From the IMG/VR virus record IMGVR_UViG_3300012921_000046, positions 629 to 64,628 of that record: a DNA stretch of 64,000 nucleotides. One strand, written 5' to 3'. Position numbers and translations under genes: made by a program. The first letter of the stretch is position 1, and each line of letters starts with the position of its first letter. Below the pieces are notes generated by a model. It worked only from the letters and a program-made list of their open reading frames with translations, did no database searches and had not been told where the DNA came from. This DNA is from a virus. Its lineage: Duplodnaviria; Caudoviricetes. Positions 18-58,476 of this stretch are shown here, in pieces.

Positions 18-1235
18 ATGGTTAATGGGCGGCTGCTTCGGCGGCGTGCAAAGGATAAGGACGAAGCTCTCGCCATTCTCAGGCAAATTCGGGAGGAGCA
101 CGACCGTATTGCCGTAGCGAGCCGCAGTCGCCAAACACTTGGCGCCTGGCTTGAACATTGGCTGGTAGAACTTCTACCGGGAACTGTGCGGGCAAAGACC
201 CTCGAAGGGTACGCTGATACCTGCAAACGCTACATCACCCCGTACCTGGGTCACATCCGGCTTGACCGCCTGACGAAAGGCCACGTTCAAGCCTGGTTGA
301 AGCTGCTCAGCAAGACAAAGGTGAAGACAAAGTACAGCAAGCAACGTCAGAAGGAGGGGGACATCCCGCTCAGAACACTCTCAGCCGCGACAGTTGCCAA
401 CGCCCATCGACGCCTTCAAAGAGCCCTCAAGGCCGCTGAAGATGCTGGTTTGCTGACAATTAATGTCGCAAAGGGCGTTGACCGACCGAAACCGGACGAG
501 GTGGTAACTGACACTGATGAGGAGGAGAAGGTGCGGGCGCTCGACCAGAGCCAGATTAAAGCACTCCTCGCTGCGCTGCGTGGCCATCGGCTCTATGCCC
601 TATTCGCGTTGGACTGCACGCTCGGCCTTCGTAGGGGGGAGCTAATCGGTCTGCGCTGGCGCAATGTTCGGCTCGATGGGCCGAAGGCCCACATTCGGGT
701 TCGTGAGCAGCTTCAGCGTCTCAAGAACGAAGCTACGGGGAAGCGAGAGCGAGTTCGCGTCACCACCAAAACCAAGGCGGGTGCGCGAACCGTTCCCCTA
801 TCGGCCGCGCTGGTAGATCTACTCCTTACCCACAGGGAGCAGCAGAAGCACGAACGTGAGGCTATCGGTGAGTCTTGGCACGGTGAGGATCTTGTCTTCA
901 CGTCGGAAATCGGCGGGCCAATCAATGAGCGAAACCTGCTTCGCACGTTGAAGAGGGCGCTGCGCCGTGCTCAGCTCCCTGATGTGTCGCTTCACTCCCT
1001 CCGTCATAGTGCCAGCTCAATCATGATGGCGAACGGCGGCAAGCCTGTAGACGTGGCTGCCATTCTCGGCCATAGCTCTCCAGAGATTACAGTGAGGATC
1101 TACGCCCACAGCTTTGACGAGGGGCAACAGGAGGCGGTAGAAGGAGCAAGCAGCATCCTGGGTGGTGACTCGGTCGCGGGAAAGGCTCCTGACGAGCCTG
1201 GGAAGCCTGCTGATGGACAAGAGGCGGAAAAGTAG
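18..1235 (+). CDS. int: Tyrosine recombinase/integrase of a neighbouring element to the left (N-terminus may extend beyond the window)
   Basis: Catalytic motifs LGLRRGEL (R), LHSLRHS (HxxR), LGHS and RIYAH (Y); SAM-like N-domain TLGAWLEHWL...TLEGY; ends 160 bp from an att core. Confidence 0.95.
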   Translation: MVNGRLLRRRAKDKDEALAILRQIREEHDRIAVASRSRQTLGAWLEHWLVELLPGTVRAKTLEGYADTCKRYITPYLGHIRLDRLTKGHVQAWLKLLSKTKVKTKYSKQRQKEGDIPLRTLSAATVANAHRRLQRALKAAEDAGLLTINVAKGVDRPKPDEVVTDTDEEEKVRALDQSQIKALLAALRGHRLYALFALDCTLGLRRGELIGLRWRNVRLDGPKAHIRVREQLQRLKNEATGKRERVRVTTKTKAGARTVPLSAALVDLLLTHREQQKHEREAIGESWHGEDLVFTSEIGGPINERNLLRTLKRALRRAQLPDVSLHSLRHSASSIMMANGGKPVDVAAILGHSSPEITVRIYAHSFDEGQQEAVEGASSILGGDSVAGKAPDEPGKPADGQEAEK

Positions 1236-2787: not shown

Positions 2788-4068
2788 CTATTCCTCTTTT
2801 CGCGGTGGTCGCGACTTAGCCACACGGCGGCTCACGCCAGCGACCGCAGCCTTCTGGCCGTCGTCGAGTGCGTGGGCGTAGAGGCGCTGGGTAATGACGC
2901 TGGAGCTATGCCCGAGCACACGCGACACGTCGACCAGACTTCCGCCCTCGGCAAGCTGGATGCTCGCGGAGCTGTGGCGCAGGTCGTGGAGGCGGATGGT
3001 GCGGGGGAGGCCGGCGGCCGCGAGTACCTTCTTGAAGTGGCGCAGGAGGTTGCGCGGTGAGATCGGGGTGCCTACTTCGCTGGGGAAGATTAGCCCGTCC
3101 GGCTTCCAGCCCTCGCGGTGCTCCTCCTGCTGCATGCGCTCGCGGTGGCGCTGCATCTCCCCACGCATGTACTCGTCGAGGTAGATCGTCCGCTCGCCGT
3201 GCTCGGTTTTGGTCGGTCCAACCCGGCGCTTGCTGTCCAGCGACCGCTCGATCGTCAGTGCGCCGCTCTTCGGGTCGTAGTCCGACCATCGCAGGGCCAG
3301 CGGCTCGCCGCGCCGCGGGCCGACGACGACATACAGCAGGTAGAGCATATACAGACGGGTGTCGATCGGGGGGTAGTGCTTGCTACGGCCCTTCTTCGCC
3401 ACGCCGGCCGCAGTCTGGTAGTTCCGGGTGGTGTAGGTGCCGCGCTTGTCCAGCTCGCCGGCAGCGGCCGCCAGCAGCTTCTCGACCTGGGGGATGTCGA
3501 GAAAGATCGCCTTTCGCCGTGTATAGCGCGGGGGTTTGCTGCGCTTGGCGACGTTGTCGGCGAGGATGCCCCACGCGACGGCCTGGGAGAGTGCAGCGCG
3601 CAGGATGCCGTGCGCCTTCTCGACGGTGCGCCCGCCAACACCAGCCTCGCGCAGCTCCTTCATCCACTTCGTCACGCCGGGGGCGGTCAGCTCGTTGAGG
3701 GGGGTCTTGCCGATCGAGGGGGTGACGTGCTTCTTGATCGTGCGGATGCGGTCTTCGGTGGTGCTCGCGGCCCATTCGCCGGTCTTGACGTAGGTCAGGA
3801 GAAACGTGTCGAGGGTCTGGGTCTGGTCAGCACTCGGCGGGCCGTCGGGGTTGGCCGCCATGTGAGCGTCGTACTTGGCCCTTACCTCCGCCTCGGTGTC
3901 TCCGGTGAAATCTTTGTAGACAGCTTTTCCCGCAGCAGTGCGTCCCACGGCGACTCGCCAGCGGAGCTGGCCGTTGGGGAGGGTGCGCCACGAGCCGGAG
4001 CCGGCCTTCGCCTTGCGGCGAGCTTTGCCAGCGGAGGCGTCGTTTTTTCGGGTTCGCTTAGCAGCCAT
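2788..4068 (-). CDS. int: Prophage tyrosine integrase
   Basis: Start taken at MAAKRTRK (4068) inside ORF 2788..4881; GPRRGE, LHDLRHS, LGHS and RLYAH motifs. Confidence 0.95.
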   Translation of the reverse strand: MAAKRTRKNDASAGKARRKAKAGSGSWRTLPNGQLRWRVAVGRTAAGKAVYKDFTGDTEAEVRAKYDAHMAANPDGPPSADQTQTLDTFLLTYVKTGEWAASTTEDRIRTIKKHVTPSIGKTPLNELTAPGVTKWMKELREAGVGGRTVEKAHGILRAALSQAVAWGILADNVAKRSKPPRYTRRKAIFLDIPQVEKLLAAAAGELDKRGTYTTRNYQTAAGVAKKGRSKHYPPIDTRLYMLYLLYVVVGPRRGEPLALRWSDYDPKSGALTIERSLDSKRRVGPTKTEHGERTIYLDEYMRGEMQRHRERMQQEEHREGWKPDGLIFPSEVGTPISPRNLLRHFKKVLAAAGLPRTIRLHDLRHSSASIQLAEGGSLVDVSRVLGHSSSVITQRLYAHALDDGQKAAVAGVSRRVAKSRPPRKEE

Positions 4069-4223
4069 TCCTGGTACCACGCAGCCGGGATGATGATGCG
4101 ACGCCCAATGCGCTTCGAGCGTAGCCGGCCAGAGTTGACCTCCGCTCGGATGCTGTCGATACCGAGCCCGGTCAGCTCGGCGACCTCTTTCATACTGTAA
4201 GCGTCGCGGTTCGGAGTTGTCAT
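3882..4223 (-). CDS. xis: Excisionase-like HTH_17 protein
   Basis: YSMKEVAELTGLGIDSIRAEVNSGRLRSKRIGRRIII directly upstream of and overlapping int. Confidence 0.85.
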   Translation of the reverse strand: MTTPNRDAYSMKEVAELTGLGIDSIRAEVNSGRLRSKRIGRRIIIPAAWYQEWLLSEPEKTTPPLAKLAARRRPAPARGAPSPTASSAGESPWDALLREKLSTKISPETPRRR

Positions 4224-4268
4224 GGTATCCACCAATGGAACTTTTGCAAATGACAGGACGGTGACGAA

Positions 4269-4739
4269 CTAGCGTTCGACTACGCGCAGCTCGATATCCG
4301 AGTAGCGCTCGCGGAACCACTTCATCCGGAGCGTCGATTCGTCGGTCTGTGTGCCCTGGCCACCCCGCTTCGCGCCCTTCACGTCCTCGACCACCCGGCG
4401 CCCCTGCTCGGTATAGGTAAAGTCGGGCGTGTAGACCGGCGGACGCTTCCCGGTGCCGAGCACAAAGCGCTGCTTCTTGGGGTGCTCGGGGCTGGGGCGC
4501 AGGTCGCTGATGGCGCCGGCACGCTCCAGCAGCCGCAGCTCCAGCCAGCGATCTCGCTCGGCCAGGCTGTCGAACGTCACCCCGTCGACCTCGCACCGAA
4601 CGTTGCCGTAGCGCGACGCCTTCGGCTCGGGTGTGAGATCCGCACCAGCCAGGGCCGCGCGCACCTCGGCTGGCTGGCGCACGCCCTGAGCCTCCAGCCG
4701 GGCCACGATGGCGGCTACGTCCTTCGGCGAGAAGTTCAC
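4269..4739 (-). CDS. DUF1064-like PD-(D/E)xK nuclease
   Basis: SRYGNVRCEVDGVTFDSLAERDR...YTPDFTY...VVEDVKG pattern. Confidence 0.8.
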   Translation of the reverse strand: MNFSPKDVAAIVARLEAQGVRQPAEVRAALAGADLTPEPKASRYGNVRCEVDGVTFDSLAERDRWLELRLLERAGAISDLRPSPEHPKKQRFVLGTGKRPPVYTPDFTYTEQGRRVVEDVKGAKRGGQGTQTDESTLRMKWFRERYSDIELRVVER

Positions 4740-5230
4740 GGCCGCACCTCGTCGATAGGCTCGGGCACCACCGTTGCACAGGTGGCGAGGGCGGCCAGGA
4801 GCTCGGCGCGCGCCTGCACCCTGACGCTGACCAGCGCCTCGCGCAGCAGCGGCCGCAGCGGCACGGGGATGGCGCGCTCAATGATCTCCTCGCCCTGGTC
4901 CGCGATCAGGTCGGCGCGTACCGCGTGGACCAGGCGTACCAGCGGCGCCGGGAGCTGGTATACCTTGGACTGCTCCAGCGCCAGCTCAGCCTTCGCTTTG
5001 TCGAGCTGGCGCCGTACCTCCTGGACCACGTCGCCGATGACGCCGGCCGGCGTATCGGGCGGCAAATCGAGCGCGGCGCGCAGGGCCTGCAGGAGTGTCT
5101 TTAGCTTCGGGTACTCGCGCACGGCCTCCTCGACAAAGGCCGGCGCGTGAGTCGTCCCGTTGATCCGCACGGCCACGACGTGGCCGGCGCTGTCCTGAGC
5201 CAGGGCGATGTCGGTCGTGTAGTCGCTCAT
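4736..5230 (-). CDS. Hypothetical protein
   Basis: Start MSDYTT with GGAG RBS; 4-bp overlaps with both neighbours. Confidence 0.7.
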   Translation of the reverse strand: MSDYTTDIALAQDSAGHVVAVRINGTTHAPAFVEEAVREYPKLKTLLQALRAALDLPPDTPAGVIGDVVQEVRRQLDKAKAELALEQSKVYQLPAPLVRLVHAVRADLIADQGEEIIERAIPVPLRPLLREALVSVRVQARAELLAALATCATVVPEPIDEVRP

Positions 5231-28959: not shown

Positions 28960-31900
28960 TTACGACCGGTTCCTCGTTTTTTCGACCTGGTACTTGAACT
29001 CATTAGCCAGATCGCGGGCCACCCGCCGCACATCGAGCTGGTTGCTGATCGTCGTGCCGGGGAGCGCGATATTGACGTTCTCGATGGTTGTGGCACTCGA
29101 TGTGGGCGCGGGTGCTACGGGCGCCGTGATCGCGCCTACCCGGTCGGCGACCGCGCCGGCCGCCACCACCGGCAGGGCGGCTCTGGCGCCGCTGAGGACG
29201 GCGGCAGCGTTCTGGAGCGTGCTGGTGTCGAGGGAGGGCAGCTTCACCTTCACGCCCGCCAGGCGTTCCGCCATCCGCTCCACCGCACCCACCGCGCGCG
29301 GCGTCCCTTTGTCGATACCCACCTCCGCGCCGGCCGGGATCTCCTCGCCGAATTCGTCGCGGAACCGGCGCGATGGCGAGCGCATCCCGAGCGCACCCCG
29401 GGCGGCCGCTAAGAGTTCGGCGGCCTTCTCGCGGACAAAGCTTTTCAGGCCCTCCCAGCCATTGGCAATGCCGTTGCGCACCCCGTCGACGATGGCCGTG
29501 CCGATCTCAGCGGCCTTCGTGACGATGCTACCAACCTGCTCGCCGATGAACGACAGAACATCGCCGATCATCACCCCCAGAGCGATCAGCAGCGCCGGGA
29601 TGGCAGTGTCCGCGACCCAATCGACAAAAGCGTTCGACCATTCGGCGATGGCCTCGACGATCTCCGGCACCTTCTCAATCAGCCACCCCAGAAGCTGACC
29701 AAACATCAGCCCCAGCGCGACGATCAGGTCCGCGGCGGCCGGCCCGACCCAGGCGAGGAAGGCGAGGGCCCATTGCGCGAGCTGCCCTGCGATGCCTGGC
29801 ACCCGCTCAATAATCCAGCTCAACAGCCGCCCGATCAGCACGAGCAGCGCGGCGAACAGGGGCGGGGCTGCCTCGATGGCCCACTGGACGAAGGCCGCGG
29901 CCCACCGTGCGACTGATTCGACAATGCCAGGCAGGGCCGCGCCCACAGCGTCGAGCATCTGGCCGATCATGGTGCCCAGAGCCAGGAGCAGCCCCGGCGC
30001 GGCCTCGACGAGCCACGACAGAAAGGCCAGAGCCCACTGGCCGACCGCCGCGATGATGCCGGGCAGCGCGCCCCCGAGCACCCCGATCAATCCAGCCGTC
30101 ACTCCGCCGACGGCCGCGAGCAGGGCCGGGGCCATGCTCGTCACCCAGCCCAGGAAGGCCAGGGCCCACTGGCCGACCTGCGCGATGATGCCGGGCAGGG
30201 CCGCCCCGATCTGGGCAACGAGCTGGTTGCGCGCCTCGCCCATCCGTGTGATCAGCTCTGGTAGGGCGGTGGCGAGCCAACTCAGAAACGCCGGGGCGTA
30301 GGGGGCAACGGCCGTCATAATGATGCCGGCCAGGGTGCGCAGGGTCGAGGCGATGATCCCGCCGATGCTGCCAAGGGTAGTCTGGAGCTGGGGGCCGGCT
30401 GTCACTAGCCCGGACCCGAAGGCGAGGGCCCACTGGCGCACCTGGGCGACGATGAGCGGGACCCGCGCAACGATCCAGCTCAGGAACCGCGCCGCCAGCA
30501 CGCCCAACGTCCCGAGCAGGAACGGCAGCGCCGGCGCTGCCCAGGACACGAAGGCCTCGGCCCACTGTGCCGCTGCCGCGACAATCCCAGGCGTGGCACC
30601 ACCAATGGCGTCGAGGATGGCGCCTACAGCCCCGCCGATTCCGGCAAGGATGGCCGGGATGCCTGACACCACCCGCGTTGCGATGGCCAGCACCCAGCCG
30701 CCGGCCTCGGTGATGATGCGAGGCAGGGCCGCGCCAAGAACCGTGATCACGCTGGCGATCAGCGTCCCCAGCCCGGCTAGCAGGACGGGGATAGTCGTCA
30801 CAACCCAGCCTGCCAGGCCCAGGCCCCACCGTCCTGCGGCTGCGATGATGCCAGGAAGGGCAGCGCCAATCGCGGAAGCTACCCCGGTCGCCACATCGGT
30901 GACCGCCGCAAACATGCCCGGGAGCCGGGACGTCAGGCCGCTCAGGATGCCGAGCGACCAGGCCGCCGCCGCATCGATGATCGTGGGCACGGCCGTAAGC
31001 AGCCGCAGCACCACCCCCCCGACCATCTGCCCGACCGTCTGCGGCACCTGCTCGACGGTCCGTTGCAGCCGCTTGAAGCCGCGCTCGGGCTTCTCGATGG
31101 CCGTGGTCATCTTCTGCATGGCGTTGGTCGTCTCGCCACGCAATCGCCCGAGCAGCGCGATGGGCTTCTGGAAGGCCCCGGCGACCTTTTGCATGGCTCC
31201 GCCGACTTGGCCCGCGAGGTCGTTGGCCTTCTTCGCCACCTCGCTGATGCCGCCAAGCGCCCCGCCCGCGTCGATGTCCGGGACCTTGATCCCGCCCCCA
31301 CCGCCGCCTCCAGCCCGCCCGCCCGCCCCCTTCTTGGCGGCGCGCTCGGCCGCCTTCCGCGCAGCCTCGGCCTCCCGCTTCTGCTGCTCCTCGAGCTGGG
31401 CAATCTCGCGGAGCTTGTCGTAGTACTCCGCACTGCCCTCGGTCAGCCCGGCGAGCTCGGCGCGCCGGTCGGCCAGCTTCTCGGCCGTGGTCGACACCTG
31501 GTCCTTGTAGGCGCGCTCGGCCCGGGTGATGGATTCCTGGTCGCGCCTGGCCTTGTCTGCCTCCTGCTGCTGCTCGCGGGACTGGCGCTCTTCGAGCTGT
31601 CGGATCTCGCGCAGGGTGTCGTAGTATTCGGCGCTGCCCTCGTCGAGCCCGGCCAGCTCGTCGCGCCGGCGCTGGAGCAGCTCGTCGGTCGAGGCGATGC
31701 TGTCCTTGTACGCTTCCTCGGCTTTTGCCGCCCGCTCGGCGGCCAGCTCCTCCTCGGTCTTTTTGGCCTTCTTGGGCCCGCCACCCCCGCCGCCACCCCC
31801 GCCCCCGCTCGCGCGGCTGGCCTGCTCCTGCAGCCGGATCTGCTCAGCGAGCAGGTCGTTCTGCCGCTTCTGGGCGTCGATGAGCGCCTGCTGGCGGGCG

Positions 31901-34323
31901 TACTGCTCTTTCGCCGCGTCCTCAGCTACCTTGGCCGCATCGACCCGCTGGCGGGCCTCGCGCTGCTTCGCTACCGCAGACGCCAGGGCCGCCCGGCGCT
32001 CGGCGATCAGCTGGGGATTGCCACTGGCGAGCGCCTTGGCCATATCGACCTGGGCCTTGCCCACCGCAGCACTCGCGGCCTTTTGCCCCTCCTGCGCCTG
32101 GCGTAGCCGCTGGCTGGCCTGGAGCGTGGACAGGTAGGCCCGGGCCACCTGCTCCGCGGCCGCACCTGCGGGCCCCGCCGCGTCACGGATGCCGGCGAAT
32201 GCCGCCTCGGACACCTCGCCGGTACGACGCAGCTCGTCGATTGCGGCTTCTACGGCTGACTGGGAGCCAACCATCGCTTCAACAATGGTCTGGTCGCTCG
32301 CCCCCAACGCCGTGCCGAACGAGCGGATGAGCCCGCTCACCTGGTCGCCCAGCGTGTTGAGCGCCCCCAGGTCGGCCTCGGTCCACCCCTCCAGCCAGGC
32401 TTCAGCCGCGCCCTTCCCCCACACATCGAGGTTCGGGAGCAGGGGTGGCGGCGAGCCAGGGGTCAGCCAGTAGGCAATGGCATCGCCGATCTGGCTCAGC
32501 ACCGCCACGACAGAAGCTACGGCGGCCGCCATGCCGTCGGCGTAGGCCTCGATCAGGCCCGAGCCCCATCCGACGGCAGCGCTAGCTATTCCAACAAGCG
32601 CCTCTTCGGCAAGAGACGCAAGTCGCTGGAGCTGTTCTAGGACGGGGCCAAGAAGTCCAAGTTGAGACGCGACGGAAACAAAGGCAGTGCCTACCGCCGC
32701 GCCAGCGCCAGCAAGCAGCGCGAGCGGCACATTGACTGCAACGAGGGCGCTTGTGATTGTTCCGAGGATGAGGCTTAGCGGGCCGACGGCTGCGGCGACA
32801 GCCAAAAATGCCACGATGGCACTACGGATACCGGGATCAACTGTGGCGAAGGAGGAGACAACTTCCGCCAGTTTTCTGATGATGGCTTCCAGTGGACCCA
32901 GGAATGGATCGGCAGCGGCAAGGCCGGCTGTCTGGAACGCGCTTTGTAGACCATCGAGCGCGCCCAACAGACCCTTGTTGTAGGCTTCAGCAGCAGCAGC
33001 AGCAGCGCCTTCCTTGGTAATCTCCGATTGCAATGAAGCAAAGCCACTGGTTCCAAGTTGGAGCAATGGGATGATGGCCTTCATGCCATCGGACAAGAAA
33101 ACGGTGTTGAGTGCGGCCGCTCGCTGTGCAGGTGTAAGGCCAGCAAGTCCACGCTCTAGGTTGGCGAGGATTTGCTGGAACGGGAGGAACTGGCCTTGTG
33201 CATTGGTGGTCGCAATGCCGAGTCGGGAAAGTTCGGCGGCGCCCGCAGCGGTTGGAGCCTGAATTTTGATAATCGCATTTTTAAGCGCCGTCGCCCCATC
33301 ACTGCCGGACAAGCCCGCCTTCTGAAGTGCCGTCAGTCCTGTCGTCAGGTCGGTTGCAGCTTGGAGTGCGGGATATGCATCGCTTGTAAGTGAGCTGAAT
33401 GCAAAACCCGCCTGTGCCAACCCCTGTCCGAAGTCAACAGCATCGCCCGAAGCCGCATTTGCCGCAGCAGCAAACTGATCGGCAATAATTGTTGCTTTTT
33501 CACCACTAAGGCCAAAAGTGTTCAGGGCGCTCGAAATTAGAATCGCAGCAGTCGCGTTGTCGGTCTGTGCAGCGGCGGCAAGTTGCAGTGTTCCTCGCGC
33601 CGCAGCCATCGTGTCTGAAACCGACAAACCCGCCTTGTTCAGCTCCAACATCGCGGCCGCTGCATCGGCTGCGCTTGTTCCAGGGAGGGTTAGATCGCCA
33701 CCAAGCTCAAACGCTCGCTGGCGTAGCTGCTCCATCTGGGAATCGGTTGCCTCAGACGCAGCTTGGAGTAGATTAAGGCTTTGCTGGAACTCTCCCGCCG
33801 CCCGCAATGCACCGCCTGCGGCCGCAGCGAGCGGCGCTGTTATGGCAACGCTGAGGGTTGCGCCAACTCGGGTGAACTGACTGCCAAGCGCCTGTAACCG
33901 CTGACTAACAGTAGACAGCGGACCATCTAGAGTACTAACCGTTGATCGGACCCGCGACAGCGCTGTGTCAACTTGCTGAATGGGGGGGGCGGCTCGCTGA
34001 GCCTGAGTACCAACTGCGCCAAGCTGCACGCCGGTTGCACTGATACGAGCGACCGACTGTTGAGCACTGTCAGCCGCTTGGCGGAAGTCTTGGCTAAATT
34101 GACGGAGGGGAGCAAGTGCCCCGGCAATGCGGGAAGGCGCCTGAGCTAGTTCAGTGAATGATTGGCTAATGCGTTGGGCGTCAGCGGCACTCGCGCTGCC
34201 CAGAGCGTTGAACGCCTGGCGGATCTCTTGGAAACTCTTCGTAACCTGCGCTGCCGCACGGCTCAGCGAGGAAACATTGAGATTGATAGATCCCCTGACG
34301 GAACCTAACGATCCGGCCGACAT
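28960..34323 (-). CDS. Tail tape measure protein (TP901-like core)
   Basis: 1787 aa, Ala/Gly-rich helical; ELNKAGLS, KAGLSGSDGATALKN; C-terminal W-containing periodic repeats and RSPSRRF. Confidence 0.93.
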   Translation of the reverse strand: MSAGSLGSVRGSINLNVSSLSRAAAQVTKSFQEIRQAFNALGSASAADAQRISQSFTELAQAPSRIAGALAPLRQFSQDFRQAADSAQQSVARISATGVQLGAVGTQAQRAAPPIQQVDTALSRVRSTVSTLDGPLSTVSQRLQALGSQFTRVGATLSVAITAPLAAAAGGALRAAGEFQQSLNLLQAASEATDSQMEQLRQRAFELGGDLTLPGTSAADAAAAMLELNKAGLSVSDTMAAARGTLQLAAAAQTDNATAAILISSALNTFGLSGEKATIIADQFAAAANAASGDAVDFGQGLAQAGFAFSSLTSDAYPALQAATDLTTGLTALQKAGLSGSDGATALKNAIIKIQAPTAAGAAELSRLGIATTNAQGQFLPFQQILANLERGLAGLTPAQRAAALNTVFLSDGMKAIIPLLQLGTSGFASLQSEITKEGAAAAAAEAYNKGLLGALDGLQSAFQTAGLAAADPFLGPLEAIIRKLAEVVSSFATVDPGIRSAIVAFLAVAAAVGPLSLILGTITSALVAVNVPLALLAGAGAAVGTAFVSVASQLGLLGPVLEQLQRLASLAEEALVGIASAAVGWGSGLIEAYADGMAAAVASVVAVLSQIGDAIAYWLTPGSPPPLLPNLDVWGKGAAEAWLEGWTEADLGALNTLGDQVSGLIRSFGTALGASDQTIVEAMVGSQSAVEAAIDELRRTGEVSEAAFAGIRDAAGPAGAAAEQVARAYLSTLQASQRLRQAQEGQKAASAAVGKAQVDMAKALASGNPQLIAERRAALASAVAKQREARQRVDAAKVAEDAAKEQYARQQALIDAQKRQNDLLAEQIRLQEQASRASGGGGGGGGGGPKKAKKTEEELAAERAAKAEEAYKDSIASTDELLQRRRDELAGLDEGSAEYYDTLREIRQLEERQSREQQQEADKARRDQESITRAERAYKDQVSTTAEKLADRRAELAGLTEGSAEYYDKLREIAQLEEQQKREAEAARKAAERAAKKGAGGRAGGGGGGGIKVPDIDAGGALGGISEVAKKANDLAGQVGGAMQKVAGAFQKPIALLGRLRGETTNAMQKMTTAIEKPERGFKRLQRTVEQVPQTVGQMVGGVVLRLLTAVPTIIDAAAAWSLGILSGLTSRLPGMFAAVTDVATGVASAIGAALPGIIAAAGRWGLGLAGWVVTTIPVLLAGLGTLIASVITVLGAALPRIITEAGGWVLAIATRVVSGIPAILAGIGGAVGAILDAIGGATPGIVAAAAQWAEAFVSWAAPALPFLLGTLGVLAARFLSWIVARVPLIVAQVRQWALAFGSGLVTAGPQLQTTLGSIGGIIASTLRTLAGIIMTAVAPYAPAFLSWLATALPELITRMGEARNQLVAQIGAALPGIIAQVGQWALAFLGWVTSMAPALLAAVGGVTAGLIGVLGGALPGIIAAVGQWALAFLSWLVEAAPGLLLALGTMIGQMLDAVGAALPGIVESVARWAAAFVQWAIEAAPPLFAALLVLIGRLLSWIIERVPGIAGQLAQWALAFLAWVGPAAADLIVALGLMFGQLLGWLIEKVPEIVEAIAEWSNAFVDWVADTAIPALLIALGVMIGDVLSFIGEQVGSIVTKAAEIGTAIVDGVRNGIANGWEGLKSFVREKAAELLAAARGALGMRSPSRRFRDEFGEEIPAGAEVGIDKGTPRAVGAVERMAERLAGVKVKLPSLDTSTLQNAAAVLSGARAALPVVAAGAVADRVGAITAPVAPAPTSSATTIENVNIALPGTTISNQLDVRRVARDLANEFKYQVEKTRNRS

Positions 34324-34487
34324 AGTGCGCCCCTGAGCAGAGAGGCGCTACAGGGGCGCGGGAACGGGCTGCGAAGCAAGGTCGCGAGGTATGAGAAAGC
34401 GCCCGGTGGTCGGGCGCTACAGGGGCGCGGGGGAGGACGGGCGCGGCAAGGGCGCGGCTTGGCTTATTATACGTTGGCCGTCAATCG

Positions 34488-34769
34488 CTATAGCTCGTGA
34501 AGGAACAGTTCCGCTTTCTTGCCCAGGTGTGCCAACCTGAGGCGCTCCGATACTCGCGCGATAGCTCGCTGCACTTGATGCATATCGAACTCAACTGGCG
34601 GCCGCCCAGCATCCACTCTCAGAATTTGCTCACCGATCAGCAGCACCCTCCCGCTGCGCCACCATGCCAAGTTGTTCTGTTCTGCCAGGCGAATAAGGTA
34701 TGCAATCGATTCCTCGTCATCAAACGTGTACTTCGTAGCACAGCAGATAATAGTCGCACGGCTGGTCAT
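34488..34769 (-). CDS. Hypothetical protein
   Basis: ORF 3 bp downstream of the HNH gene. Confidence 0.6.
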   Translation of the reverse strand: MTSRATIICCATKYTFDDEESIAYLIRLAEQNNLAWWRSGRVLLIGEQILRVDAGRPPVEFDMHQVQRAIARVSERLRLAHLGKKAELFLHEL

Positions 34770-34772
34770 CGC

Positions 34773-35063
34773 CTAGCCCTCCCATACCAATTCGCGCCAG
34801 TTTGGAGGAATGATACCATCGGCAAGGGCCTTGCTTATCATCCCCCGATGCCGGTTGTCAGCTCGCAGCACATGGCAGCGGCGACACAAAGTGCGGAGGT
34901 TGGATAACCCGTTGCCCCCATAGCGGCCGCTCTGAATGTGATCAATGTTGGCCGTTCGTTCCGTGAGAGGAATGCGACAGCGCACGCAAGTATAGCCGTC
35001 GCGCGCCAGGACAGCGCGCCGTGTTTCGGCCCATATCTCGCGCGGCTGCCGCTTTACTCCCAT
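34773..35063 (-). CDS. Small HNH endonuclease
   Basis: RDGYTCVRC...IDHI...GGNGLSNLRTLCRRCH. Confidence 0.9.
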   Translation of the reverse strand: MGVKRQPREIWAETRRAVLARDGYTCVRCRIPLTERTANIDHIQSGRYGGNGLSNLRTLCRRCHVLRADNRHRGMISKALADGIIPPNWRELVWEG

Positions 35064-35070
35064 TGTGTTT

Positions 35071-35133
35071 ACCCAACCCTGCCAGACCTAACCATGCCAT
35101 GCCAGACCTAACCTGACCCTACCACGCCCCACC
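35071..35133 (-). ncRNA. GGY-NN pentamer array 1 (putative vrRNA-type guide)
   Basis: GGT-GG-GGC-GT-GGT-AG-GGT-CA-GGT-TA-GGT-CT-GGC-AT-GGC-AT-GGT-TA-GGT-CT-GGC-AG-GGT-TG-GGT: 13 of 13 GGY units, 24 nt after the RAMP stop codon. Confidence 0.85.
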
Positions 35134-35157
35134 GGATTGTGGCCGCCCCGAAGCGTG

Positions 35158-35742
35158 TTACCGCTCCTGAACGTCGAAACTCACAATCTCAAAGCGTCCG
35201 AACCCGATCCCCCGCCCGTCGCCCAACCCCGAGAGCACGCCCGCATCGCGGGCTACGGCCTCCATCTCGCCACGGCTCACGATGGTTTTGTCCCACAGAA
35301 TGCCGAACGCGGTCGTCCAGCCAGGCCCGGCCGCAATGCGATACCTGACATTGCGGCTTTTTGTTGCCGGGTTTCGCACAGAGGACACATGGAGGTATAC
35401 CGGCTGTGACTCGTCGCGGGTGATCGACTCGGGCATGTAGCGGTCGAACAGCAGACGGTCGGTTGTCACCTGAAGCGTGGCCGCCATAGCGGACTGAATG
35501 CTGCCCTTGCCTTTCTTCGTGTACTTTGCACCCTCCCGCAATACACTGAATGCATAAGTGCTCGGGAGATATAGTTGCCGATCCGAGGTATAGAGCACGG
35601 TTTTGCGCCACTCTTCCGGATCGTTGCCCGCCACGCCCGTGCGCTCTTGCTTCTCCAGAGGGATCGAGTCTGGGCCAAAGCAGTGCCACAGCAGCGGACG
35701 CACGCCCCGGATCATGATGGTTGCGGTCAACAGGTTGCCCAC
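35158..35742 (-). CDS. Solo Cas7/RAMP-like protein (Vipr-like)
   Basis: N-terminal IRGVRPLLWH, LYLPSTYAFSVLREGAK, C-terminal G-rich loop GLGDGRGIGFGRFEI typical of RAMPs; no other cas genes. Confidence 0.8.
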   Translation of the reverse strand: MGNLLTATIMIRGVRPLLWHCFGPDSIPLEKQERTGVAGNDPEEWRKTVLYTSDRQLYLPSTYAFSVLREGAKYTKKGKGSIQSAMAATLQVTTDRLLFDRYMPESITRDESQPVYLHVSSVRNPATKSRNVRYRIAAGPGWTTAFGILWDKTIVSRGEMEAVARDAGVLSGLGDGRGIGFGRFEIVSFDVQER

Positions 35743-35744
35743 GG

Positions 35745-36473
35745 TTACTGCCCTTCCTCTGCTTCATGTCGGCGGGGGCGGAGCGCGATGCACGGGGCGC
35801 CCCTCCCAGCTTCGTTTCGTAGCCGAATTGCCTCCCACCGGGCGCGTTGAGCGTGGCGGATGCGCATGAAGTGCATCCGCGCGCCGCCGATGGTCAGATC
35901 GAATGCTTCTGCCAGAGCGCGGATCGTAAGTGGTTTTCCTGCTTGCCAGTAGGAATCGGCAAGACGATCTGCCAGGACAGCGGTTGTTTCAACCTCCGAT
36001 GGAATCGGCACGGGGAGAGCTGGCAGGGCTGGCGGAGCCTCCAGGGCGGCGAGCCGGCGCAGCAGTTCACTCGTCTGCTGTTCAAGCGCGACCAGGCGTG
36101 CTTCCTGGTGATTGGCGGGGGCGCCGCCCCGCCGGTAGGCCATCGCCCACTCGTTCCATTGCAGATAGAAACGCGGGCTGAGGTAGTGAGCATAGGCGGC
36201 TGCGATCTGCCAGTGCGCCCAGGTGCCACCTGTGCGCCCGCTACGCGCTGCCAGTAAACTATGCGAATTTGCACAGTTTTCGCGCTCCGCCAGCGCTGCG
36301 ATCAAGTCCTGTACGTGCTGATTGCGTAGCCACTGAGCCGGCGCCTTGTTGGGCGCGCCGCCGACCGCCCGGTGCATGGCGTTGAGATTCCAGTGCTCTG
36401 CCGACGAATCGAAGATGACTTCGCTACCGTCGTATTCAAACAAGACAAGATCAGTGGGCATGAGCGACCTCAC
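35745..36473 (-). CDS. KilA-N/APSES domain protein
   Basis: WNLNAMHRAVG...KAPAQWLRN...GGTWAHWQIAAAYAHYLSPRF. Confidence 0.85.
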   Translation of the reverse strand: MRSLMPTDLVLFEYDGSEVIFDSSAEHWNLNAMHRAVGGAPNKAPAQWLRNQHVQDLIAALAERENCANSHSLLAARSGRTGGTWAHWQIAAAYAHYLSPRFYLQWNEWAMAYRRGGAPANHQEARLVALEQQTSELLRRLAALEAPPALPALPVPIPSEVETTAVLADRLADSYWQAGKPLTIRALAEAFDLTIGGARMHFMRIRHAQRARWEAIRLRNEAGRGAPCIALRPRRHEAEEGQ

Positions 36474-36691
36474 TTCCGGGCCTGTCGAAGCAGGAAGGAA
36501 CGCCGCAGGATGGTGGCTGCGCCGGGAGAGCGCAGCAGCTCGGCCAGGTCGAATGTCTCCGCCGGGGTCAAGGCCAGGAGGAGATCGCCGTCGTCCTTCT
36601 CTAGCGCCACGCTGCCATCATCCGAGAGGGTGAGCCGGCCCGTGTCCAGGCGCCGGGTGATCTGCGTCGGGTTGATCGTCGCGTCACTCAT
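36470..36691 (-). CDS. Small hypothetical protein
   Basis: Start MSDATIN with AAGGAAGG RBS; 4-bp overlaps. Confidence 0.65.
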   Translation of the reverse strand: MSDATINPTQITRRLDTGRLTLSDDGSVALEKDDGDLLLALTPAETFDLAELLRSPGAATILRRSFLLRQARK

Positions 36692-36945
36692 CGCATGTTC
36701 CTTCCTTGCTTTAACCGAAGAACGAATCCCCAGCAACCCCAGATGATCAGAGCGGCAATACGATCTGCCGCGTGATGTAGGGCCAGGTGGCAGCCTCGGC
36801 ACACTGTTACAAGGTTGTCGCTGTGGGTTTGGCCGCCGAACTGGCGTGGGCGGATGTGATGGGCGCTCAGGCGGTCGGTTCCACCGCACAATAGGCAGCG
36901 CCCATCTCGCGCGATTGCTCGCTTGTGCGACTCTCTCCGAGGCAT
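36688..36945 (-). CDS. Small HNH endonuclease
   Basis: RDGRCLLCG...LSAHHIRPRQFGGQTHSDNLVTVCRGCH. Confidence 0.85.
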   Translation of the reverse strand: MPRRESHKRAIARDGRCLLCGGTDRLSAHHIRPRQFGGQTHSDNLVTVCRGCHLALHHAADRIAALIIWGCWGFVLRLKQGRNMR

Positions 36946-37154
36946 CTTTACGCTTCCACCTGCTGCATAAGCCAGCGGCCAGCGCGCTCCTGACAAGCCT
37001 GGAGGGAAAGCCATGTACGAGCGCGATACTTGGCGACAAGGCGACTAAAGAACGCAAGCTCGGTGGGAGTAGGTTCGTGATGGAAATCATCGCAGGGCAT
37101 AGCAATGCTCCTGAGAGGGGCGCCGGTTGAGCCGGCGCCCCTGCGAGCTGAGGG

Positions 37155-37739
37155 TTAAGCGGCGAGGGCGGAGCGGAAAGCAGGGCTAGCGGCGATTCGG
37201 GTGAAGGCAGCCGCGAAGGCGGCGAGCTGATCGCGGGCTACGTCCTCGTTGACCCCGTGGCCGATAATGGCACAGCGGTTGGACTCGACGCTCACGGTCA
37301 CATCGCCCGAGCTGAACACCAGCCAGTCGGCGTCGCGCTCGTCAACCTCAACGGCGCTCTCAGCATCCCGGTCGGCCTGCTCATCCGCCAGATCGGCGGC
37401 GAGCTGGGCCGCCTCCGCCTGCAAGTCCAGGGCGCGGCGCACGATGCGAGCGGCGGCGCGATGCCAGCAGATGCCCTTGCCGTGCGTGAAGGCGCGGCAC
37501 TGGCAATCGCCGTTGCTCACGTAGAACACGCCCGCCTCGGTCGCGCTCTCGACACGGATGGCGTGGTGGTCAAGGTCGTAGCTGATCGCGTCGGCCTGGA
37601 GCAAAAAATCGTAGGCGCTATCGATCGCGCGGAGCCAGGAAGGGGAGACACTGGCCGCTTCGCGGGCGTTGTCCACGGCCTCGACGATGAAGTCCAGCAG
37701 GTGGGCCGTGCGGATGGTGGTAAAATCGCTGGTAGCCAT
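37155..37739 (-). CDS. SWIM zinc-finger protein
   Basis: YVSNGDCQCRAF...ICWHRAA (CxC...CxH); start MATSDF. Confidence 0.8.
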   Translation of the reverse strand: MATSDFTTIRTAHLLDFIVEAVDNAREAASVSPSWLRAIDSAYDFLLQADAISYDLDHHAIRVESATEAGVFYVSNGDCQCRAFTHGKGICWHRAAARIVRRALDLQAEAAQLAADLADEQADRDAESAVEVDERDADWLVFSSGDVTVSVESNRCAIIGHGVNEDVARDQLAAFAAAFTRIAASPAFRSALAA

Positions 37740-37819: not shown

Positions 37820-37891
37820 AGTATACCATAGTGCAATCGCAATGTCAATACAATTAGAGCTATTGACATAGGGATACGCACTTGCTATAAT
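37820..37891. promoter_or_regulatory. Back-to-back sigma70 promoters
   Basis: Plus: TTGACA(37863-37868)-17-TATAAT(37886-37891); minus: TTGACA(37848-37843)-17-TATACT(37825-37820). Confidence 0.88.
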
Positions 37892-37928: not shown

Positions 37929-38207
37929 ATGCCAGAAAGCATCACTATGCCCGTCCGGAGCGCGGTGCCGCTGCTCATTGCTCGCATGAATGTGACGCGG
38001 GCTGAGCGTGGCATGCCGCCGTTAAAGCAGACAGAGATCGCTGCAAGTGCCGGTGTCTCCCAGTCCGTGATCAGTACGCTGTCCTCGGGCAAGTCGAAGC
38101 GGATTGACTTTGAGACGATCGATAGGCTTTGTGGCTTTTTCGGCTGCACACCAGGCGACTTGTTTATCAGGGAGCCTGATCCGGAGCCGGATTCCGGCGA
38201 CCAGTAA
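37929..38207 (+). CDS. Cro/C1-type HTH_26 regulator
   Basis: LKQTEIAASAGVSQSVISTLSSGKSKRIDFETIDRLCGFFGCTPGDLF. Confidence 0.88.
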   Translation: MPESITMPVRSAVPLLIARMNVTRAERGMPPLKQTEIAASAGVSQSVISTLSSGKSKRIDFETIDRLCGFFGCTPGDLFIREPDPEPDSGDQ

Positions 38208-38246: not shown

Positions 38247-38471
38247 ATGGCGATCAAACTGAAAACGTTCTGGATTCAGGAGGATGATCCGGGGCAGGCC
38301 CTCCAAATCGCTCATAGCAAAGCATTGGAGTTCTTCCACGACTCTAAGCTCACAGCACCCCAGGTGGTAACGATCAACGAGCAACTATCATCAAACCCGG
38401 CGAACGGCAAGACTATAGCGGTTGTTACGGTCTGGTACGACGACAGCAGGATGCCCCTCAGCGGTCAATAA
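38247..38471 (+). CDS. Small hypothetical protein
   Basis: AAGGGAG RBS; compact ORF. Confidence 0.65.
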   Translation: MAIKLKTFWIQEDDPGQALQIAHSKALEFFHDSKLTAPQVVTINEQLSSNPANGKTIAVVTVWYDDSRMPLSGQ

Positions 38472-38509: not shown

Positions 38510-38676
38510 TCCCCGCAAGGGGAAGACGATGGGGCGTGGTGAGGTATGGTACGGCGAGGTATGCCGAGGTATGGTCCGGTGAGGCTCGGTGGGGCATGGC
38601 TGGGCTAGGTGCGGCAAGTTAGGGATGCGCCTCCCGCGAAAGCGATCGGAAACTCCGGTCGCTTTCGTGCTTTTTT
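38510..38676 (+). ncRNA. GGY-NN pentamer array 2 (38533-38615) with 5' GNRA hairpin and 3' terminator
   Basis: 16 GGY plus one GCC unit at exact 5-nt period; TCCCC-GCAA-GGGGA upstream; GAAAGCGATCGGA-AAC-TCCGGTCGCTTTC and T6 downstream. Confidence 0.82.
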
Positions 38677-39430
38677 ACGGGTTCTGTCCAATACCAATAT
38701 TAAAACCAAACACCCCCTGACCATCCATGCGATAGACAACCGCAATATCGCCGGGCTCGCCGTTTGTCCACAAACTAAAACCACCCACCTTATCAGGGAA
38801 GCGTTCAATGAGCGAAGCGCTGTAATAGCGGTCTACCATAGAACCAGTGCTATTCATGAATGATTCACGGTACTCAACATCAGACGGTAACAGGGCTTGC
38901 GCAAGCGCGCGGGCTTCGTCTCTTGATACTCGCACTTCACGGTAGGAATAATCGATAATCCACGCTACATCTTCAAGGTACATTACCGAAAGACTTGGGC
39001 CATAGAAAACGAAGCCACCGCTTTCCCTAGTTGGACTTCCATGCTGCCGCTCAAAACTAACTCGCTCCAGGCCCAATCCATTTGAGGCGTACATTGGCGC
39101 TGTCGTTGGCATAGTAGTACGATTCGGCAAGGGCGGACTTGTGCGTAGTGGGCGAGATGTTGGAATGCTCGTGGGGGAGGGTGGCGCAGCGGGGGAGGGT
39201 GGCATAGTCGATTCAGCCGAAGCAGGCAGAGCGGTTAACACTGCGGTTGGAGAGACTTGTGCAGCTTGGGAAGCCGTACCAGTCGGAATTGAGGCTGTCT
39301 GGCGAATACTCCGACTAAGCGTGTTGAGGGCAATCCCGGGAATGCAGCCACAGCACGAAACAAACAACCCAAGCACAATAATAGCTTTGTTAAGCAAGCT
39401 CCGATTCCAAAACGCACGTAACCCCTGCAT
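38675..39430 (-). CDS. Membrane-anchored/lipoprotein moron with Pro/Thr/Ser linker
   Basis: Start MQGLRAFW with AGGAGG RBS; TM helix, PT-rich linker, globular C-terminal domain; lower GC. Confidence 0.75.
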   Translation of the reverse strand: MQGLRAFWNRSLLNKAIIVLGLFVSCCGCIPGIALNTLSRSIRQTASIPTGTASQAAQVSPTAVLTALPASAESTMPPSPAAPPSPTSIPTSRPLRTSPPLPNRTTMPTTAPMYASNGLGLERVSFERQHGSPTRESGGFVFYGPSLSVMYLEDVAWIIDYSYREVRVSRDEARALAQALLPSDVEYRESFMNSTGSMVDRYYSASLIERFPDKVGGFSLWTNGEPGDIAVVYRMDGQGVFGFNIGIGQNP

Positions 39431-39511
39431 GATGCCTCCTGGTGGTGAAGAGGGAACGCAGGGAAGTGTACACACGACAGCCTGTCCCAGCAAGGACAGG
39501 CTGTCGTTTTT

Positions 39512-39810
39512 TCACCAGATTCCGTCGGGCGGGACTTCCATCTCCACGATGTCGATGCCCTGGCCTTGAAAGCGCGCGAGCTCGGTCGGCGGGGCGAAGC
39601 CACCGCGCGCGGCCGGCTTCGTGCTGCTTCGGCGCTCGTGCTTCCGCTTGGGGTCCTGGCGCCGGCTCGTCTCATCCATCCCGACAACCATCACGTTCAG
39701 GTCGATGATGAAGTCCGACCAGTCGGTCTTCATCAGGCTGCTGGGCCGCTGGCCGAACTCCTTGGCGATCGTGTAGAGCAGGTAGACCTCGTCACGCCGC
39801 TCCAGGAAAG
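39512..39810 (-). CDS. Tail assembly chaperone, downstream (T-like) segment
   Basis: Open +1 frame overlapping the 3' end of the G-like gene. Confidence 0.6.
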
Positions 39811-40367
39811 GTGGCGAGCTGCTGCGCTTCCTCCGTGAGCAGCGTGAAGAGCGCCATGCGATCCTCAAACGCGATGTCGGTCACCAGCACCGCGCCGATG
39901 TAGCGGGCCACCAGCTCCGCCCGCGCGGGGTCGTCGAGCTCGGGAGCCTCTTCGCCAGCAGCCGCCGCGTCCAGCCACGCCGCGACCTCCTCGCGCCGCA
40001 CGGCCGTGCCGGCGAACGTCGCGTGCACCTGGTCGATCAGCGCGTTGGCCGCCTCCACGCTCAGCACATGGGGCTGCTTGACCGTGGCACAGACCACAGC
40101 GTTGATCGCAACGACCAGATCGTCGATCTCGTTCAGCACGGCGCTGGTGTCGCCAGTCTGAAGCTTCTCCAGCTTGGCGAAGAGCGGCATCGGCACGACG
40201 CCCTGAGCGGCCAGGTCGGCGAGGTGGATCTTGCGGTAGGTGAGGGCGAGGCCGTCCGAGGTCACAAACGTGCCAACCCGCTTCTTGCGCCAGTCGCGCA
40301 GGTCGAGCGGGGCGGGCGTGGCGGGTGGGGTAGGGGCGGCGGGAATGGGGGTGGGCGTCTTGGGCAC
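39792..40367 (-). CDS. Tail assembly chaperone (G-like)
   Basis: Located right after the tail tube gene; ends ATFPGAA. Confidence 0.7.
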   Translation of the reverse strand: MPKTPTPIPAAPTPPATPAPLDLRDWRKKRVGTFVTSDGLALTYRKIHLADLAAQGVVPMPLFAKLEKLQTGDTSAVLNEIDDLVVAINAVVCATVKQPHVLSVEAANALIDQVHATFAGTAVRREEVAAWLDAAAAGEEAPELDDPARAELVARYIGAVLVTDIAFEDRMALFTLLTEEAQQLATFPGAA

Positions 40368-40447: not shown

Positions 40448-40966
40448 CTAGGTCGACGGCAGGGCGGTGGCGGTCTTGTTGCGCACCATCTGGCAGATGC
40501 CGTTGGTGCTGTCGTCGATGGCGGTGCCCTCGCACTTGGTGACGAGGAACTCGCCGTTCTTCATCTCGCCTTCGAGGCTGGTCACCTTGGCCTTGTAGAA
40601 CTTCACGTGGAAGTCACCGTCGTCGGTGATGGCCCGGCCGTAGAGCTTGACGTAGGGGTAGCTGTCGCCGCCCGACGCCTTCATGGTCGAGGTCTCGGTG
40701 TTGCCCGTGCCGGCCGCCGTGAGCGTCCGCCCGGTGAGCGCCGCGTAGGCCTCCAGCGAGATACCGCCGGCCTCCAGCTCCCAGCTCATCGACTCCAGCG
40801 TGGTGACCGTGGCGACGATCTTGTCGTCGCCCTTCAGCTCGTTGGAGCTGGCCTCCTCCGTGAACTTCATCGTCTGCGCCCAGGGCAGGGCGACGGCGCC
40901 GCCACTGGCGGGGACGATCTTGATCTCCCGCATACCGTATGCGGCAACACTTCCAGTCAGGGGCAT
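40448..40966 (-). CDS. Major tail tube protein
   Basis: ELKGDDK...WELEAGGISLEAYAAL...FYKAKVT...KCEGTA; size and position. Confidence 0.8.
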   Translation of the reverse strand: MPLTGSVAAYGMREIKIVPASGGAVALPWAQTMKFTEEASSNELKGDDKIVATVTTLESMSWELEAGGISLEAYAALTGRTLTAAGTGNTETSTMKASGGDSYPYVKLYGRAITDDGDFHVKFYKAKVTSLEGEMKNGEFLVTKCEGTAIDDSTNGICQMVRNKTATALPST

Positions 40967-46702: not shown

Positions 46703-46777
46703 TGGTACCGGGAGCCGGATTTGCACCGGCGACCTTCGGGATATGAGCCCGACGCGCTGCTCCTGCGCTACCCCGGA
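46703..46777 (-). tRNA. tRNA-Met(CAT), initiator-like
   Basis: TCCGGGG TA GCGC AGGAGCA GCGC G TCGGG CTCATAT CCCGA AGGTC GCCGG TGCAAAT CCGGC TCCCGGT A CCA; 1:72 mismatch, three consecutive G:C pairs in the anticodon stem. Confidence 0.88.
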
Positions 46778-58412: not shown

Positions 58413-58476
58413 TGTCCTGTACATAGGACAATTATAGCACCATATTAGATATTGTCTAGGGGTTTGGGGCGTCTCT
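58413..58476 (-). promoter_or_regulatory. Promoter/operator cassette A
   Basis: TAGACA-16-TATAAT with extended -10 TG, then TGTCCTGTACATAGGACA. Confidence 0.85.

Follow-up and report, generated by a model that had tools for sequence, protein, structure and literature searches.

We analysed a locus on the minus strand of a 64,000-nucleotide stretch of viral DNA (here called the window), which comes from a single virus record of 64,628 bp with two integrases. A string of seven features is found there, headed by a SWIM zinc-finger ORF (37155-37739) and continuing with an HNH gene that we call HNH2 (36688-37014), a KilA-N domain gene (35745-36473), the vipr gene (35158-35742), whose GTG start codon stands 2 nt past the KilA-N stop codon, a tract of GGY-NN repeats (vrRNA-1, or guide 1; 35071-35133), the gene of a 96-aa HNH nuclease (34773-35063; Pfam HNH, E 1e-7), which is the vap-like partner of vipr, and orf93 (34488-34769), of unknown function and the last in the string ahead of the tape-measure gene. 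Three of these genes show no wider conservation: neither the SWIM ORF nor the KilA-N gene is conserved with vipr elsewhere, and orf93 is not conserved in other loci. HNH2 finds at most a weak HNH-domain similarity elsewhere (E 2e-5 to 7e-4), and as these matches mostly overlap the vap-type HNH of the other loci, it does not represent a separate conserved partner.

The vipr gene codes for a protein of 194 aa, in whose translation the motifs GVRPLLWH, QLYLPSTY and GLGDGRGIGFGRF are found, which bears out the RAMP hallmarks read there by the original prediction. Among all PDB sequences this protein has a sole match, 36pp_D ("SUSP1 Vipr protein"; phmmer with a single sequence, E 7.4e-5), and the profile of its family (35 members) matched the same chain at E 4.8e-10, with residues 8-191 aligned. 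It also matches PHROG 4652, of unknown function (E 6e-12), and it has no match in Pfam. The residues that hold the GGY triplet in the cryo-EM structure of SUSP1 Vipr are given as H17, R138, D177, W178 and R179 in the preprint on it (bioRxiv 10.64898/2026.04.26.720927; PDB 36pp). Four of these five guide-RNA-contacting residues are kept: H17, R138, D177 and R179 correspond in the profile alignment to H20, R135, D175 and R177 of the window's Vipr, all invariant or near-invariant across the 35 family members, whereas W178, the stacking partner of G2 in the SUSP1 complex, is replaced in the window's family by an invariant Gly (G176). The G-loop GLGDGRGIGFGRF is aligned with GVGDWRPRFGRF of the SUSP1 protein.

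The original prediction had staked its reading of this protein on a RAMP fold. The top Foldseek matches of the AF2 model (pLDDT 88) were Csm3 and type VII Cas7 (probability 1.0, E ~6e-9 to 1e-8, TM ~0.55), so that the objection of a missing RAMP fold falls away. At the sequence level, the resemblance to the solved Vipr is more specific than that to any Cas7. Residues 21-44 form a strongly conserved Gly/Pro-rich loop, modelled with low confidence, at the place where SUSP1 Vipr has a DNA-contacting helical bundle. The alignments and the model together identify the protein as a Vipr-family RAMP with a predicted Cas7/Csm3-like fold.

The repeat tract of vrRNA-1 begins 24 nt past the TAA stop codon of vipr and ends 8 nt ahead of the start codon of the HNH gene. 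It is composed of 13 perfect GGY units, which follow each other at an exact 5-nt period from 35133 down to 35071, with 12 internal dinucleotides (GG GT AG CA TA CT AT AT TA CT AG TG) and GGT-AA at its end; triplet count, period, distance from the stop codon and dinucleotides are all exactly as originally described. The chance expectation for 13-unit GGY-NN runs is about 3e-12 per window, and in 200 shuffles the longest run had 3-6 units. We found no significant structured 3' tail behind guide 1 (z 0.2), the tract running into the HNH start codon, whereas the vrRNAs of SUSP1 have a pseudoknot-like structured tail. The Rfam scan of the window returned tRNA only, and thus no hammerhead ribozyme. 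CRISPR-like direct repeats are absent from the 64-kb window and cas genes are absent among the neighbouring genes (Pfam and PADLOC scans), in agreement with the earlier statement on both.

A degenerate scan of both strands of the window identified exactly one further GGY-NN array, at 38533-38615 on the plus strand (vrRNA-2, or guide 2). The original prediction, right about the 13-unit array, had missed this one. It has 17 in-register units, of which unit 7 is GCC, and ends in GGC-AA. The two guides share their first 11 nt (TGGGGCGTGGT). We rejected this 11-mer as a fixed 5' handle, as array starts differ within other multi-array loci and as it also occurs once in coding DNA. The array is followed by a 3' extension (38616-38679, plus strand) with an intrinsic terminator, made of a 16-pair stem (38635-38669) and a T run.

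Two promoters of the sigma-70 type are predicted back to back in front of these genes. One, with perfect boxes (TTGACA-17-TATAAT; 37863-37891, plus strand), faces HTH92, orf74 and vrRNA-2; the divergent one (TTGACA-17-TATACT; 37820-37848, minus strand) faces the SWIM ORF, HNH2, KilA-N, vipr, vrRNA-1, HNH and orf93. HTH92 (37929-38207, plus strand) codes for a 92-aa XRE-type HTH regulator, assigned by PHROG to the transcriptional regulators and with homologues in five homologous loci, and is followed by orf74 (38247-38471, plus strand), of unknown function and matching no family. Guide 2 occupies the 3' end of the HTH92 transcription unit. Framed by the predicted promoters and the terminator, the locus appears to be organised as two divergent transcription units. 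Opposite-strand arrays were found in five loci in all, one of which (L046, with the same array coordinates as L008) was left out; in the 4 distinct loci the array stands, as judged by eye, directly behind a small HTH or RHH-like gene. This position behind a small gene of the DNA-binding type in four other loci suggests that the second module recurs.

The cassette sits within the tail genes of the phage, between the tail assembly chaperone (39792-40367) and the tape measure (28960-34323), the major tail protein being found at 40448-40966. An ORF that overlaps the chaperone gene downstream, and extends to 39512, was read as the frameshift T part. In a window of 67% G+C, likelihood change points at ~32583 and ~39572 delimit a low-GC island of 7 kb, with a G+C content of 0.55-0.59 inside and 0.69-0.71 outside. 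The island enters the tape-measure gene, the first ~600 codons of which have a GC3 of 0.42-0.66, and the remainder mostly 0.8-0.94, and this step implies that the tape-measure gene is mosaic. The island, its own consensus promoters and the two integrases of the phage fit the "prophage moron" that was first proposed. Relatives of the phage were looked for without success: chaperone and tape-measure queries gave none in IMG/VR, the chaperone T ORF had no homologue in the protein collection searched, and tblastn and megablast found nothing among GenBank phages.

We then took a comparative view of the clade. The window's Vipr has matches in more than 1,800 proteins, of which the 120 best listed have 62-74% identity, apart from the window's own protein, found at 99%. 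Viral sequences make up 85-100% of the ESM Atlas clusters nearest to it. We compared 85 loci, each extending only 5 kb to either side; 36 were taken from IMG/VR, and the other 49 came from genomes and MAGs that span many phyla. With a strict threshold of at least 7 of 8 GGY-NN units, arrays were present in 52 of the 85 loci, almost always on the vipr strand and within ~1.3 kb of the gene. Of the loci below this threshold, most have an array that is shorter or degenerate in one of these positions. The original reading would have been in difficulty had the homologues lacked adjacent arrays, and this is not what we found. Arrays stand between vipr and the next gene in 26 loci and just past the next gene in 28; in 7 loci they are found just upstream of vipr, and in 5 they lie farther upstream on the opposite strand. 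The 63 unique arrays of the clade have 9-20 units on a constant GGC/GGT scaffold. Between them they make use of all 16 dinucleotides; AA is enriched in the last units across the clade, and no common tail was defined.

The same comparison revealed the partner of vipr. In 81 of 84 loci vipr is immediately followed by a same-strand homologue of the HNH gene (41-74% identity); no other neighbour is conserved. The CxxC...DH...N...N...CxxCH residues (catalytic and zinc) are kept in these proteins, which also share a C-terminal extension going beyond the generic HNH domain. The domain itself is nearest to those of IscB (E 1e-10) and ZorE, below the family cut-offs. The vipr gene, first described as "solo", is therefore not so, with an HNH gene 8 nt past its array in the window and directly after it in nearly all loci. 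Other neighbours vary from locus to locus, and the cassette is mobile. The unit is vipr with its guide or guides and HNH, which fits the two-gene layout "vipr plus vap" given in the VIPR preprint.

The system named in the original prediction is real: VIPR was described in 2026, between April and October, in three preprints (bioRxiv 10.64898/2026.04.26.720920, 10.64898/2026.04.26.720927 and 10.64898/2026.10.15.759431). VIPR loci are mostly carried by phages or proviruses, and their vrRNAs have some 9-16 YNNGG units in tandem, with hypervariable NN, ahead of an invariable structured 3' tail. The homology to Vipr, the predicted Cas7/Csm3-like fold, the arrays beside the gene and beside most of its homologues, and the phage-borne two-gene cassette all support the VIPR-type identity then proposed, and the alternative of an undescribed relative can be dropped, as the locus belongs to the published kind. 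Sequence analysis could hardly make this membership more certain: the locus is a real and complete VIPR with an HNH partner and two guides, VIPR itself being already known. We put the probability that it is an HNH-associated VIPR system of a temperate, siphovirus-like phage at roughly 0.9.

How such a system would work can be proposed in part from the solved SUSP1 complex. By analogy with it, Vipr protomers would assemble along each vrRNA, one per pentamer, burying every GGY and leaving the NN dinucleotides presented, and the filament would read double-stranded DNA in a gapped register (NN, one base skipped, NN), such that the skipped base would fall on the wobble positions of codons. Processing of the vipr-HNH transcript would release guide 1, and the transcript of the regulator would supply guide 2 from its 3' end. 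The HNH protein may act on the DNA bound by the filament, in which case the outcome would be cleavage and not only silencing.

The gapped-pattern target search proposed with the original prediction gave no exact match in IMG/VR, either for guide 1 (10 NN) or for guide 2 (15 NN, its 5' half and its 3' half). One exact-pattern match was obtained in metagenomes (L086); it lies on a low-GC non-coding contig, and about one is expected by chance on a rough estimate. A relaxed 8-NN pattern gave 11 matches, all on low-GC contigs (27-46%) and all adjoined by stop codons in the frames checked. The L087 site, with an open tape-measure-like peptide, was discarded because it lies antisense inside an unrelated 389-aa ORF. 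When all clade guides were compared with all 85 loci, there was no skip-1 excess for cross-locus targets, and the window's guides had no NN match of at least 80% in the 85 loci, vipr and HNH genes included. Nor did the peptides coded by the guides show, by eye, a convincing match to the Vipr consensus.

We also searched the phage's own genome for near-matches, each NN of a guide being taken as a codon that a wobble base completes. The best near-match of guide 1 under skip 1 is at 32459-32493 on the plus strand (17/24, the first five NN being perfect); it lies in frame on tape-measure codons 610-622, on a conserved YWLxPGSPP motif, and its score is not significant alone (P 0.31). That of guide 2 is at 39510-39556 on the minus strand (21/32, or 25/36 with the end units); it is also in frame, covers the C-terminus and the stop codon of the putative chaperone T ORF, and is significant against shuffled guides (P 0.005). 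The two sites lie 16 nt (guide 2) and 90 nt (guide 1) from the GC change points of the island, the guide 1 site standing on the high-GC side of its junction. Shuffled guides fall within 100 nt of an island edge in 1.2% and 0.5% of trials, and the real guides, when read with skip 0, 2 or 3, have their best sites 3.5-30 kb from the island edges. A promoter cassette at 58429-58457 was considered as a target of guide 1 and rejected: it is the best own match with 10 NN (14/20) and not the best with 12 NN, and by a rough binomial estimate a stretch as long as the window should hold a few matches of this quality by chance.

The tape-measure segment at the guide 1 site has 1,185 homologues, and the motif I-x-Y-W-L-x-P-G-S-P-P is found 129 times among the best 150 of them. 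The peptide coded by guide 1 matches 8-9 of 13 positions in five homologues, versus 0 in 3,000 shuffled-pattern trials, a comparison that is partly circular as the motif was found via the phage's own site. At one motif position guide 1 codes for a Tyr that occurs in none of the 129 instances. Since this Tyr is absent from the family, and since the phage itself has a consensus-like allele, a perfect coding target is hypothetical. For the latter reason we also rejected the idea that the phage's allele deviates from the family consensus for escape. With an in-frame NN match of 66-71% for the two guides, and none of at least 80%, the phage's own copies of the tail genes would nevertheless be expected to escape.

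The near-matches of other guides of the clade point to the same register. Own-locus near-matches with z of at least 4 were obtained for 4 of 51 clade guides under skip 1, and for 0 under skip 0 and 0 under skip 2, and all three of those skip-1 near-matches that lie within ORFs place the skip on the wobble position. This enrichment, restricted to skip 1, supports a one-base-skip code within the clade. The closest viral relative (L001) has its cassette at the same chaperone/tape-measure position; its guide has a 20/24 in-frame match in its own tape-measure gene (z 6.9), and a weaker one beside its HNH gene. In L012, L033 and L038 the near-matches follow shortly after the cassette, those of L012 and L033 falling in the next ORF. 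Because of the limited extent of the loci, near-matches close to the cassette are partly built in, the window's phage excepted. That the near-matches of both guides of this phage are in frame at the island edges suggests that the guides are directed against rival alleles of the adjoining tail genes. We infer, with moderate support, that the targets are such alleles, namely of the chaperone 3' end and of the tape-measure motif.

These observations have to be weighed against other explanations of the locus. In a genome of such high G+C content, where GGY runs of 4-6 units do arise by chance, one might take the array for a fortuitous G-rich repeat beside an unrelated small protein, or else for the decayed remnant of a type III CRISPR system. 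We consider this extremely improbable, given the expectation for a 13-unit run, and the comparative data refute it, since arrays with variable dinucleotides recur beside homologues across phyla; a CRISPR remnant is at odds with the lack of repeats and with a protein closer in sequence to the solved Vipr than to any Cas7. A more serious question is whether the HNH protein has a part in the system at all. HNH genes are common in phages, an unrelated one being present in the same gene string, and the type II VIPRs characterised so far work by transcriptional repression, so that the locus might act by silencing only, with the nuclease as an independent selfish or packaging-type endonuclease travelling beside vipr. 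This is very unlikely in view of the constancy of the association, HNH being the one neighbour that is conserved when the others vary, with the same orientation and the same place immediately behind vipr in all 81 loci. The arrays, moreover, stand between the two genes or right behind the HNH gene, and the C-terminal extension of the nuclease is conserved. The VIPR preprint itself names nuclease vaps, and HNH is among the Vap domain structures of its fig. S21 (10.64898/2026.04.26.720920).

One might further speculate that the cassette is an RNA-guided homing element. Both guides would then mark sites in the flanking genes of cassette-free relatives, HNH would cut there, and repair during co-infection would copy the island together with the adjoining 5' part of the tape-measure gene. 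This would account for the best skip-1 sites of the two guides lying one at each end of a 7-kb low-GC tract, into which the first ~600 tape-measure codons fall, and it agrees with the mobility of the cassette and its variable neighbours, as well as with the near-matches found beside the cassette in L012, L033 and L038 and, in L001, in the flanking tape-measure gene and on the HNH side. It remains a doubtful explanation. No perfect site in a cassette-free relative came out of the IMG/VR patterns or of the searches for chaperone and tape-measure relatives. A shared preference for conserved sequence could by itself bring mosaic junctions and guide targets together, the near-matches close to the cassette are subject to the bias of the 5-kb flanks outside the window's phage, and the site of guide 1 is on the high-GC side of the junction. 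If true, this explanation would give intronless homing its first RNA-programmed counterpart.

We thus retain the reading of the locus as an HNH-associated VIPR. It adds to a recently described family a well-formed, HNH-linked member from a high-GC temperate phage. For a clade of more than 1,800 proteins, our data show that the nuclease partner is obligatory and that the cassette is mobile. The locus further indicates that a VIPR cassette can occupy a tail operon, and that the transcript of a small regulator can carry a second guide at its 3' end. Finally, the near-cognate sites at the island edges suggest that nuclease-armed VIPRs compete with related phages, or spread into them, via adjoining genes, an idea that we did not find in the parts of the three VIPR preprints available to us.

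Among known systems, the closest likeness is to type II VIPR, represented by Escherichia phage SUSP1 and a Pseudomonas fulva prophage in the first preprint (10.64898/2026.04.26.720920). The window's locus shares with it a small single-RRM RAMP with G-loop and thumb, the His, Arg, Asp and Arg that hold the GGY, guides made of GGY-NN pentamers (~9-17 units), and a minimal phage-borne cassette of two genes, with no CRISPR array and no self-target at 80%; in both, one guide is upstream or divergent and others are downstream. The relationship to SUSP1 Vipr is nevertheless distant (~20% identity by eye over the aligned stretch), with Gly in the place of the stacking Trp178. Guide 2 ends here in a plain terminator hairpin and has 17 units, relatives in the clade reaching 20. 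For type II, the preprint gives the vaps as predicted DNA-binding proteins, whereas the partner here is an HNH nuclease. In this respect, a Vipr together with a predicted nuclease, the locus resembles types III-V, which carry predicted nucleases or helicases and for which the same source proposes destruction of the target rather than repression (10.64898/2026.04.26.720920). Types III and V are reported there to be enriched in cellular defence islands (10.64898/2026.04.26.720920); unlike them, the window's clade is largely viral, and the cassette is found here within a phage tail operon. The mobile character of the cassette calls for another comparison. The T-even phages have free-standing homing endonucleases, the Seg and Mob proteins, and the locus is like these in being a mobile nuclease cassette between conserved genes, with candidate sites in the flanks and divergent copies in the carrier; recognition would be RNA-guided here, and not protein-encoded, homing being only one reading of our data. 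The fold, finally, is held in common with Csm3 and type VII Cas7, as is the principle of an RNA-bound filament with a thumb that flips bases. Unlike class 1 CRISPR-Cas, the locus has no repeat-spacer array, no other cas genes and no adaptation module, and unlike in Cas7 systems, the guide would carry its information in scattered dinucleotides and read its target with gaps of one base.

The pairing of a regulator with a trailing guide is a recurrent module. Among the homologous vipr loci that we collected, vrRNA arrays on the opposite strand were examined in four distinct loci (L008, 3026-3302; L009, 3560-3908; L014, 3632-3904; L015, 932-1394), and in all four a small gene, whose product by eye resembles an HTH or RHH DNA-binding protein, lies directly before the array. 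Locus L046, whose array coordinates are identical to those of L008, is not among the four. The window offers a parallel, with guide 2 (38533-38615, plus strand) coming after the XRE-type regulator HTH92 and the small ORF orf74.

At the chaperone-side edge of the VIPR island lies a 272-aa ORF (38675-39493, minus strand), low in GC, for which a family search returned no match. Its product, a possible membrane or exclusion protein, has by eye an N-terminal hydrophobic segment and a middle part rich in Pro, Thr and Ser. The spacer separating orf93 from the start of the tape-measure gene carries two copies of an exact 18-nt direct repeat, CCGCGCCCCTGTAGCGCC (34344-34361 and 34413-34430, minus strand), each adjoined by hairpin-like sequence; by chance, no such repeat is expected. 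The tape-measure gene is a compositional mosaic whose 5' part (32374-34323) stands apart from the rest: GC3 is 0.42-0.66 over codons 1-600 and mostly 0.8-0.94 over the remaining codons, and the composition changes near 32583. It seems that this 5' third and the VIPR island arrived jointly. Elsewhere in the window we found a tRNA-Met (CAT) gene (46706-46777, minus strand) and two genes matching PHROG 1 'integrase' (18-1235, plus strand; 2788-4881, minus strand), both near one end of the record; at 697 aa, one of the two integrases is of unusual length.

A resemblance between the variable part of the window's guide 1 and a promoter cassette (TAGACA...TATAAT) had been described in another first-reader note, and it was borne out at 14 of 20 positions (58429-58457, minus strand), the five leading dinucleotides being perfect. 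Roughly estimated from a binomial model, chance would give a few matches of this quality in a sequence as long as the window, and the cassette is not the best site of guide 1 once all 12 dinucleotides are counted. In the IMG/VR phage L001, that phage's own guide 1 matches its tape-measure gene, in frame, at 20 of 24 dinucleotide positions (1930-1964 of L001, minus strand). Because this match (83%) exceeds the 80% level at which targets are called in the VIPR preprint, the site is possibly a self-target or a very recent escape.
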